Origin: a virus
Taxonomy: Duplodnaviria > Heunggongvirae > Uroviricota > Caudoviricetes
Strand: one strand, 5' to 3'
DNA length: 12,927 nt
Virus record (IMG/VR): IMGVR_UViG_2660237930_000001
Position numbers and translations under genes: made by a program. The notes under the pieces are model-generated. The model saw only the letters and a program-made list of their open reading frames with translations, did not search any database and was not told the DNA's origin. Positions 3,879 to 7,178 of this stretch are shown here, piece after piece (the stretch's first letter is position 1; every line of letters begins with the position of its first letter).

Positions 3879-4172
3879 ATGAAAAAAATGTTGTTTTCTG
3901 CCGCTCTGGCAATGCTTATTACAGGATGTGCTCAACAGACGTTTACTGTTGGAAACAAACCGACAGCAGTAACACCAAAGGAAACCATCACCCATCATTT
4001 CTTCGTTTCGGGAATTGGACAGGAGAAAACTGTGGATGCAGCCAAAATTTGTGGCGGCGCAGAAAATGTTGTTAAAACAGAAACCCAGCAAACATTCGTA
4101 AATGGATTGCTCGGTTTTATTACTTTAGGCATTTATACTCCGCTGGAAGCGCGTGTCTATTGCTCACAATAA
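3879..4172 (+). CDS. bor: Bor lipoprotein (serum-resistance lipoprotein), lambda-type
   Basis: The 3831-4172 track ORF contains MKKMLFSAALAMLITGCAQQTFTV...EARVYCSQ; the ATG at 3879 gives a 97-aa protein with a lipobox (LITGC) matching lambda Bor as recalled. Opposite strand to the lysis genes, as in lambda. Confidence 0.9.
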   Translation: MKKMLFSAALAMLITGCAQQTFTVGNKPTAVTPKETITHHFFVSGIGQEKTVDAAKICGGAENVVKTETQQTFVNGLLGFITLGIYTPLEARVYCSQ

Positions 4173-4178
4173 TTGCAT

Positions 4179-4204
4179 GAGTTGCCCATCGATATGGGCA
4201 GCTC
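4179..4204. terminator. Hairpin between convergent bor and Rz (bidirectional terminator candidate)
   Basis: GAGTTGCCCAT-CGAT-ATGGGCAGCTC forms a stem of about 11 bp directly between the 3' ends of bor (+) and Rz (-); a similar hairpin is present at this position in lambda as I recall. Confidence 0.5.
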
Positions 4205-4665
4205 TATCTGCACTGCTCATTAATATACTTCTGGGTTCCTTCCAGTTGTTTTTGCATCGTGATCAGCCTCTCTCTGAGGGTGAAATAATCCCGTTCAGCG
4301 GTGTCTGCCAGTCGGGGGGAGGCTGCATTATCCACGCCGGAGGCGGTGGTGGCTTCACGCACTGACTGACAGACTGCTTTGATGTGCAACCGACGACGAC
4401 CAGCGGCAACATCATCACGCAGAGCATCATTTTCAGCTTTCGCATCAGCTAACTCCTTCGTGTATTTTGCATCGAGCGCAGCAACATCACGCTGACGCAT
4501 CTGCATGTCAGTAATTGCCGCATTCGCCAGCTTCAGTTCTCTGGCATTTTTGTCGCGCTGGGCTTTGTAGGTAATGGCGTTATCACGGTAATGATTAACA
4601 GTCCATAACAGGCAGACGATGATGCAGATGAGCAGAGCGGAGATAATCGCGGTTAACCGACTCAT
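4204..4665 (-). CDS. Rz: Spanin inner-membrane subunit Rz (i-spanin)
   Basis: The 4204-4794 track ORF contains [45 protein letters not shown]...KYINEQCR, matching lambda Rz (153 aa) from the ATG at 4665. The N-terminal extension in the track is read-through of the endolysin 3' end. Confidence 0.9.
4263..4445 (-). CDS. Rz1: Spanin outer-membrane lipoprotein subunit Rz1 (o-spanin), embedded in Rz in the +1 frame
   Basis: 60-aa [63 protein letters not shown]: lipobox (VVGC), proline-rich, entirely inside Rz, matching lambda Rz1 as recalled. Confidence 0.85.
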
Positions 4666-4820
4666 GACATCAACACTCCAACAGCCAGAAACCACGGCCA
4701 CGCATCGTTGCCATTGAATGCGAGCAACGCTGCCATGAAAAAGCAAATCATGCTCATTGTTGCCCCCACAAACAGACTTCACGCTCAATCTCACGGCGAG
4801 TCATCAGCCCTTTCCATTGC

Positions 4821-5252
4821 TTACCGCCAGCGTATGTCCAGCGCCGTAGAATGATCACATGCGCCTTTGATATCGCCCTGGTTTATTTTGCGAAGAAGCG
4901 TCGATGTTCTGAAATTGCCAGCGCCCACGTTGTAAACGAATGAGTAAAGAGCGCCGCGCGTTGTTTCCGGTATATCGACTGTGATGTACGGGTTAATTTG
5001 TCTGGCGACAGTGGCAAGGTCTTTATTCAGGAGGGCTTTGCATTCTGCTTCGGTATACGTTTTACCGAGCATGATGTCTTTTCCGGTGTGTCCGTGACAT
5101 ACAGTCCATACGCCAACGATATCTTTGTATGGTATGTAGCTGACACCTTCCAGGCCATCGTCACCACTCGGACCAGTGATGAGCACAGACGCTATGGCAA
5201 CAGCCCCACCACCAATAGCAGCAGCAATAGCCTTGCGTAATGATGGCGACAT
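4821..5252 (-). CDS. R: Phage-21-type SAR endolysin (T4-lysozyme family), apparently truncated by a +1 frameshift; the C-terminal about 30 aa continue in another frame to a stop at 4754-4756
   Basis: 143-aa [62 protein letters not shown]... has an N-terminal signal-anchor-release segment and lysozyme core. The frame shifted by one nucleotide across 4850-4853 reads ...[32 protein letters not shown], ending just upstream of the Rz start. Confidence 0.85.
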
Positions 5253-5467
5253 TATTCACCTCTCGCAGCCTTACGCTTATCTTCTTTAATCTTGAAATAA
5301 AGGTTTGTCAGATACGTCAGCAAGCCAAATACCAGACTACCCAGCACACCTATTGCCGCCCACTGTGAGGGCGTGACTTTATCGAGCAACTGTAAAAACC
5401 AGTACCCGGCACTACCTGCTGAGGTGCCATAGGCGACACCCGTTGTTAACTTATCCATGGATTTCAT
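5252..5467 (-). CDS. S: Class II holin / pinholin (S21-type) with dual-start motif
   Basis: 71-aa [74 protein letters not shown]. Met1/Met4 (MKSM) dual start; two transmembrane segments; GGAGGTGGGG Shine-Dalgarno (reverse complement of 5471-5480) upstream; stop overlaps the R start. Confidence 0.9.
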
Positions 5468-5700: not shown

Positions 5701-5744
5701 TTTGTGAGAATGCAGACGGGGCTACTGATTTTTTGTGAGAATGC
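5701..5744. repeat. Two perfect 13-bp direct repeats TTTGTGAGAATGC (5701-5713 and 5732-5744), 31 bp start-to-start
   Basis: Read directly from the sequence; the flanks are also similar (CTAAATGATA / CTACTGATTT upstream). Lies in the AT-rich intergenic region between S (-) and the porin gene (+). Confidence 0.6.
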
Positions 5745-6004
5745 CACCGAGTGTTCAAAACACCACCACAAATACATAAGAAAACTTCAACAAATAACCA
5801 AATAACCAATGAATAATTTCCGATGTTATTTTTAGTTTGTTTAAATTAAGCTAAAGAATTATAGAGCGCTTATAAATAAGTGCCATTAATATAAATTAGC
5901 TAATAGATTTATTTTCGTTCAAACAAGAGCCATGAATAGGATTAGATAGAAAAGGTTCAGATAAAAATAGAGATCTACTTCACAAATTAAATGAGAAACT
6001 AAAA

Positions 6005-6095: not shown

Positions 6096-7178
6096 ATGAA
6101 AAAATTAACAGTGGCAATTTCTGCTGTAGCTGCATCAGTACTGATGGCGATGTCTGCTCAGGCAGCTGAAATTTATAATAAAGACAGTAACAAGCTGGAT
6201 CTATACGGGAAAGTTAATGCCAAGCACTACTTTTCCTCTAATGATGCAGATGATGGTGATACTACTTATGCCCGTCTTGGCTTCAAAGGTGAAACCCAAA
6301 TCAACGATCAACTGACTGGTTTCGGTCAGTGGGAATATGAATTCAAAGGCAACCGTGCTGAATCTCAAGGTTCTTCCAAAGACAAAACCCGTCTTGCATT
6401 TGCAGGCCTGAAATTTGGTGATTACGGCTCAATCGATTACGGCCGTAACTACGGTGTAGCATACGACATCGGTGCGTGGACTGACGTCCTGCCAGAATTC
6501 GGTGGTGATACCTGGACCCAAACAGATGTGTTCATGACTGGTCGCACTACTGGTGTTGCAACTTATCGTAACAACGACTTCTTTGGTCTGGTCGATGGCC
6601 TGAACTTTGCTGCTCAGTATCAGGGTAAAAATGACCGCACTGACGTAACTGAAGCCAACGGTGATGGTTTCGGTTTCTCCACTACTTATGAGTATGAAGG
6701 ATTCGGCGTGGGTGCAACCTATGCTAAATCAGATCGCACTGACGGTCAGGTCGCCTATGGTAAGAGCAAATTCAATGCCTCCGGCAAAAATGCGGAAGTA
6801 TGGGCTGCAGGCCTGAAATATGATGCGAACAATATCTATCTGGCTACCACATATTCTGAAACTCAGAATATGACCGTTTTTGGTAATAACCATATTGCAA
6901 ACAAAGCACAAAACTTTGAAGCAGTAGCACAATATCAGTTTGACTTCGGTCTGCGACCATCTGTTGCTTACCTTCAGTCAAAAGGTAAAGACCTTGGTGT
7001 TCATGGTGACCGAGACTTAGTCAAGTATGTCGATGTCGGTGCTACTTACTACTTTAATAAAAACATGTCCACTTTTGTTGATTACAAAATCAACTTAATT
7101 GACGATAGTAAGTTTACCAAAACAGCTGGTATTGATACCGACGACATCGTCGCTGTAGGTCTGGTTTATCAGTTCTAA
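6096..7178 (+). CDS. nmpC: Outer-membrane general porin of the OmpC/OmpF family (NmpC / phage Lc-type), prophage moron between Q and the lysis genes
   Basis: 360-aa ORF with signal peptide [30 protein letters not shown]..., porin hallmarks and C-terminal ...VGLVYQF. GGG Shine-Dalgarno 6 nt upstream. Opposite strand to the late genes, as for nmpC in DLP12 and lc in PA-2. Confidence 0.9.

Follow-up and report, generated by a model that had tools for sequence, protein, structure and literature searches.

The prophage DNA analysed here, a stretch of 12,927 bp (hereafter, the window), carries an endolysin gene, rrrD, whose coding sequence is divided between two reading frames. The locus raises the question of whether the gene is broken in the living genome or was broken when the genome was assembled. 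The window corresponds to the whole draft contig AOQL01000124.1 (GCA_000397425.1), in reverse orientation, and is 99.9% identical to the same region of the complete chromosomes of E. coli GN02350, UPEC132, N50, MS20658 and KC-Dl-1. In the RefSeq annotation of these relatives, the gene order is portal, head-tail joining protein, large terminase, nohD, iss, rzpD, rrrD and essD, followed by an OmpC-like porin, quuD, ylcG, rusA, ybcO, ninE, ybcN, an alpha/beta hydrolase, ybcK and emrE. The lysis cassette of the lambdoid prophage that the window carries is of the phage-21 type, and the element sits at the DLP12 locus, the chromosomal locus occupied by K-12 DLP12 (emrE-ybcK ... quuD-porin-essD-rrrD-rzpD). 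In the relatives, one side of the prophage comprises int, xis, exo, bet, gam and kil, along with genes for a cI-like S24 repressor and a cro-like regulator and the replication genes O and P. Q and the lysis genes follow, and the other side holds complete lambda-like head and tail genes up to J, lom and the side tail fibres, where the element adjoins sitABCD. The only partial or partly pseudogenised genes in it are those of the side tail fibres (stf). The view that this prophage is as decayed as that of K-12 DLP12 proved wrong, the element of the relatives being close to a complete lambdoid prophage from int to stf. As it is nearly complete in the relatives, a lysis defect would matter if the change in rrrD were real.

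The lysis genes of the window are encoded on the minus strand. essD (5252-5467) encodes an intact S21-type pinholin of 71 aa (PF04971, P21 holin S, 121 bits); the interval shows zero differences from the relatives, where the product is annotated as WP_000839596.1. The gene is located directly upstream of rrrD, with an ATGA-type overlap, and the endolysin gene hence adjoins that of its cognate pinholin. rzpD (4204-4665) encodes an intact Rz-type i-spanin of 153 aa (PF03245, 183 bits), again with zero differences from the relatives, in which it is annotated as rzpD. Embedded in it is rzoD (4263-4445, minus strand), encoding an intact Rz1-type o-spanin lipoprotein of 60 aa (PF06085, 72 bits). rrrD and rzpD are separated by a 31-codon hydrophobic ORF (4662-4757, minus strand), which shares an ATGA overlap with each: its ATG with the rrrD stop codon, and its stop with the rzpD ATG at 4665. 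The cassette is a standard one of the pinholin/SAR-endolysin/spanin kind: its four genes have the order, the overlaps and the family assignments of those in S21-R21-Rz-Rz1 cassettes, and it differs only by the frameshift and the extra small ORF. Apart from the lesion in rrrD, the whole cassette (4204-5467) is identical to that of the relatives.

By sequence, domain and context, rrrD of the window is a phage-21/RrrD-type SAR endolysin gene, the same gene as RrrD (K-12 DLP12) and R21 (phage 21), with a T4-lysozyme/GH24 fold. The intact protein of the relatives (WP_000075095.1, 165 aa) matches 4ZPU (E = 1e-108), 3HDE and 3HDF over its full length; 4ZPU is RrrD of the K-12 DLP12 prophage, and 3HDE and 3HDF are R of phage 21. 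Both 4ZPU and 3HDE are 165 aa long and end in ...(V/I)CLWGQQ, as the earlier note had stated for phage-21-type SAR endolysins of about 165 aa. Residues 1-133 encoded by the window gene are 96-97% identical to both. The 143-aa ORF matches PF00959 (GH24) with 120 bits (cut-off 22.3) over positions 3-103 of 125, the intact relative with 155 bits over positions 3-125. A complete PF00959 domain in a single frame, including the C-terminal GL.TRRE.E, is absent, and the missing part sits in the +1 frame; this is the only defining feature of the RrrD/R21 family that rrrD of the window lacks. The catalytic triad can be read from the translation (GLE35G, YKD44I, VWT50V) and is invariant in the homologue alignment, E35, D44 and T50 being the catalytic Glu-Asp-Thr triad in R21 numbering. 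Residues 1-30 are Gly/Ala-rich, weakly hydrophobic and near-identical to the SAR domain of 3HDE and 4ZPU. SAR endolysins are exported by Sec, held inactive in the energised inner membrane by this N-terminal domain, and released and refolded once the pinholin depolarises the membrane (PMC6116005). By analogy, intact RrrD would be exported by Sec, tethered by its SAR domain and activated when EssD collapses the membrane potential.

To place the lesion, rrrD was aligned with the intact genes of KC-Dl-1 and DA33135, and the window was compared over its full length with three relatives. Where four 99.9%-identical complete genomes read GATCAGCTACGG on the coding strand, the window has GATCATTCTACGG. 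This corresponds to a G>TT replacement in codon 134 (CAG), with a net gain of one base, and is seen on the plus strand as AA at 4850-4851 instead of the C of the relatives. The lesion is located outside any homopolymer. The 5′ part of rrrD (4821-5252, minus strand) comprises 143 codons, with residues 1-133 native and followed by 10 out-of-frame residues and TAA. The 3′ part (4754-4849, minus strand), that is, codons 135-165 and TGA, is now in the +1 frame and is nucleotide-identical to the intact relatives, with no further change in the comparison with three of them. The +1 frame, which runs from 4754 to 4858 on the minus strand, hence contains the last 31 rrrD codons unmutated, and, judging from the sequence, chance is ruled out as the origin of this exact match. 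With respect to RrrD and R21, the C-terminal 31 codons are present and sequence-identical, the frame is broken at codon 134 and the product is 143 aa long. As in genuine pseudogenes, the gene shows a disrupting change relative to its intact orthologues. The earlier note had proposed that the endolysin gene is split by a net +1 change near 4850-4853, and both frames are as it described, with the lesion at 4850-4851. It had attributed the split to one extra base; the alignment with the closest complete genomes corrects this to the replacement of one base by two. The stop of the shifted frame is found at 4754-4756, as proposed, but not just before the start of the Rz gene: it overlaps the ATG of the 31-codon ORF, and the rzpD start, as annotated in the relatives, is at 4665, 89 nt further on.

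A split gene could still be functional, either by programmed +1 ribosomal frameshifting or if a separate C-terminal piece complemented the N-terminal fragment. The ORF at 4754-4858 (minus strand) starts with GTG at 4858, with AAAGG before it and AAGG 5 nt upstream, and the downstream frame is perfectly preserved. Such preservation is, however, equally expected from an artefact or from a very recent mutation, and the arrangement is not conserved, about 124 other loci and the best-matching complete genomes being in frame. Read from the sequence, CAT-TCT contains no known +1 slippery motif, hungry codon or stop. Without an export signal, the 34-aa peptide would be confined to the cytoplasm, since proteins do not fit through pinholin channels, whose width is about 2 nm (PMC6116005). 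Programmed ribosomal frameshifting was rejected, as neither a conserved site nor a slippery motif was found: 124 of the 125 loci with the flanking motif have in-frame 6-nt variants at the site, the window being the exception, and the extra base is absent from the complete genomes. We regard a functional split, of either kind, as extremely improbable.

The two readings that remain are both routine: either the draft was misassembled at this site, or a prophage lysis gene has freshly acquired a frameshift. If the G>TT change is real, it is a very recent, strain-private pseudogenising mutation; to this reading we give somewhat less than an even chance. The product would keep residues 1-133 and lose residues 134-165. 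These lost 32 residues are nearly invariant in an alignment of enterobacterial homologues (Escherichia, Salmonella, Citrobacter and Klebsiella), with 16 positions conserved at 90% or more (Q134, L135, W138, G143, K147, G148, L149, T151, R152, R153, E154, E156, R157, E158, C160 and W162), and they include the last 22 of the 125 PF00959 positions. All solved relatives, the P22 and P1 lysozymes included, align through query residues 142-165. As an AlphaFold2 model of the intact protein had a mean pLDDT of 52, it was set aside and the lost part was judged by Pfam coverage, PDB alignments and conservation. Because the lost residues are near-invariant and cover the end of the domain, the truncated product is probably inactive and not able to fold into an active enzyme. 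Were the mutation real, a SAR-tethered 143-aa fragment unable to fold into an active muramidase would be made, pinholin triggering would depolarise the cell without degradation of the wall, and the prophage would still carry iss, the porin and the packaging genes but be defective in lysis. With rrrD translation ending about 65 nt short of the ATGA overlaps, the 31-codon ORF and rzpD would probably also be less tightly coupled to it.

The near-invariance of the lost segment from Escherichia to Klebsiella, together with its being part of PF00959, counts in favour of a real mutation. So does the existence of other disrupted rrrD copies, which at the same time weakens the case for an artefact: among the fetched IMG/VR loci, internal disruptions affect about 4 of the roughly 107 copies that do not run off a contig, and there is in addition one IS2 insertion in an E. 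coli allele (P0006/L015, 3399-3466). The IS2 element follows TGTGA, two bases upstream of the lesion site. These other disrupted alleles (IS2 and the internal truncations in IMG/VR loci) carry different lesions, and the TT allele is found in none of them. The type of change points in the same direction, a replacement of one base by two outside a homopolymer being atypical of base-calling and sequencing errors.

The distribution of the TT allele, on the contrary, argues for an artefact and against a real mutation, as it was seen once across all collections. The exact 143-aa protein is found in 1 contig of a 153-billion-gene index, while the intact protein is found in at least 1000 contigs. A 35-mer across the lesion is absent from the genome, metagenome and viral collections. 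In a megablast of 5,426 complete E. coli genomes, the TT allele was not found: the best of the 3,949 genomes with a match reached only 99.6% identity and lacked the extra base. A gapped pattern scan of IMG/VR yielded about 125 loci with the flanking motif, of which 117 read CAGCTA, 5 CAGTTA and 2 CAGATA; CATTCTA occurs in a single one, which is the window itself. A second occurrence of the allele in independent isolates was not found in any collection searched. Private protein variants of the window were used to look for sister isolates, and none was found: terminase A175G is a singleton in the gene index, and YlcG L20F recurs only on an unrelated metagenome contig, 98.8% identical, via a different codon. 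There is therefore no lineage mate with which rrrD could be checked.

Intact homologues ending at the same position as the 143-aa ORF, which the earlier note had named as evidence against a split, are absent among 636 homologues. Homologues of 130-155 aa were considered as natural truncations and rejected, these shorter entries being partial genes at contig ends or the product of the IS2 insertion.

The position of the lesion is a further argument for an assembly error. The base abutting it is the only one in that stretch which differs between prophage copies (C, T or A), and short-read assemblers therefore meet a branch there. GATCAG or GATCAGCT in rrrD is the exact end of at least 15 independent draft contigs, and this variable base accounts for codon 134 being a site where assemblies break repeatedly. 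The coincidence of the lesion with a known contig-break and branch site speaks against a real mutation, but its weight is limited, since a lesion would lie beside a copy-variable site by chance alone in about 25% of cases. Among the contigs that end at rrrD codon 134 (loci L009-L014) there are unrelated E. coli assemblies and a Salmonella entry with a 134-aa partial protein.

The window contains two more private insertions, both located 850-950 bp from the rrrD lesion, in the leader of the late operon upstream of essD. The first one is a 31-bp insertion at 5701-5731 (plus strand) in the porin-essD spacer; the insertion consists of TTTGTGAGAATGC followed by AGACGGGGCTACTGATTT. Its first 13 bp are repeated in the 13 bp that follow, and the end of the first copy coincides with a position that is C or T depending on the prophage copy. 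The second, 60 bp from the former, is an 8-bp tandem duplicate of CAAATAAC at 5791-5798 (plus strand). Neither of them is present in 2,470 complete E. coli genomes with the porin-essD spacer, and the three collections (genome, metagenome and viral) do not contain the junction of the 31-bp one either. An origin of the changes by a template switch or from a local donor was rejected, as the window contains no second copy of GATCATTCTACGG and no other copy of the 18-bp remainder of the 31-bp insertion. Both insertions look like unmerged overlaps at a join, and two such private junction-like events within 950 bp favour an artefact over a real change in rrrD. There are points on the other side: tandem duplications of 8 bp commonly arise by real slippage, and assemblers rarely invent 18 bases of novel sequence. 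Since they normally do not, at least the 31-bp insertion must stem from some read. At the 8-bp duplication, the short repeat also shows indel polymorphism in other prophage alleles.

When compared with the three closest genomes, the window shows 5 private SNPs and 3 private indels, all of the indels within 950 bp, whereas the relatives differ among themselves by 0-4 SNPs and zero indels across 12.9 kb. This 3:5 ratio of indels to SNPs, shown by no relative, again supports an assembly error against a real mutation. The SNPs themselves (positions 2168, 3766, 4034, 6659 and 7917) are terminase A175G, an intergenic change, iss V52V, porin N188N and YlcG L20F; with 2 synonymous, 2 non-synonymous and 1 intergenic, they look natural, a point against an artefact.

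Another contig of the same assembly is also of note. In a preprint that compared 948 E. coli 16S sequences, that of GCA_000397425.1 (AOQL01000076.469.2061, 1,593 nt) is reported as the only outlier (bioRxiv 10.1101/2025.09.04.674223). The multi-copy regions of this draft may thus have local quality problems, which adds to the case for an artefact at the expense of a real mutation. The 3′ part of rrrD does so as well: its 31 codons show no further change, so that secondary decay is absent there.

This evidence is circumstantial and leans towards the alternative that the earlier note had itself named, an assembly error: with a probability of roughly 0.55, we slightly prefer a local mistake in the draft to a recent real pseudogene as the origin of the rrrD break. 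The assembly graph would branch between paralogous prophage copies, and the G>TT change would be the scar of a junction, not a state of the living genome. One difficulty is that the closest complete relatives carry a single rrrD-like copy (one place per record), with no second copy to confuse an assembler; for this reason, a second paralog has to be assumed in the source strain, and the finding counts towards a real mutation.

It might also be that the G>TT change and the 31-bp and 8-bp insertions are all real and represent a mutational cluster silencing the lysis cassette of an otherwise complete prophage. We consider this improbable. Such a cluster would represent early domestication of the prophage: lysis would be disarmed, while iss, the porin and sitABCD would stay with the host.

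Whichever way the break arose, the locus should be labelled as a frameshifted rrrD (or as a corrected one, if the break is an error), and not as a 143-aa lysozyme. In genome scans, an indel that is private to a short draft contig of a multi-copy prophage region is best regarded with suspicion, above all where it adjoins a base that varies between paralogs. If the rrrD break is real, the strain carries a lambdoid prophage that has iss and a porin gene and is naturally impaired in lysis, a case of routine prophage decay. The DLP12 lysis genes have also been linked to the production of outer-membrane vesicles in K-12 (PMC7918800); this trait could therefore change too, if the mutation is real.

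The 31-codon ORF distinguishes the region between rrrD and rzpD of the window from that of RrrD/R21. It is present, though unannotated, in the closest complete genomes, and missing from the DA33135 lineage and, by a rough judgement from the positions at which alignments break, from most other fetched loci. It matches no Pfam family and gives a weak match to phrog_14810 (function not assigned); its product is possibly a small membrane protein belonging to the lysis cassette. The cassette is, in addition, flanked by two opposite-strand morons: iss, encoding a serum-survival lipoprotein of the Bor family (3879-4172, plus strand), and the gene of the OmpC/NmpC-like porin (6096-7178, plus strand).
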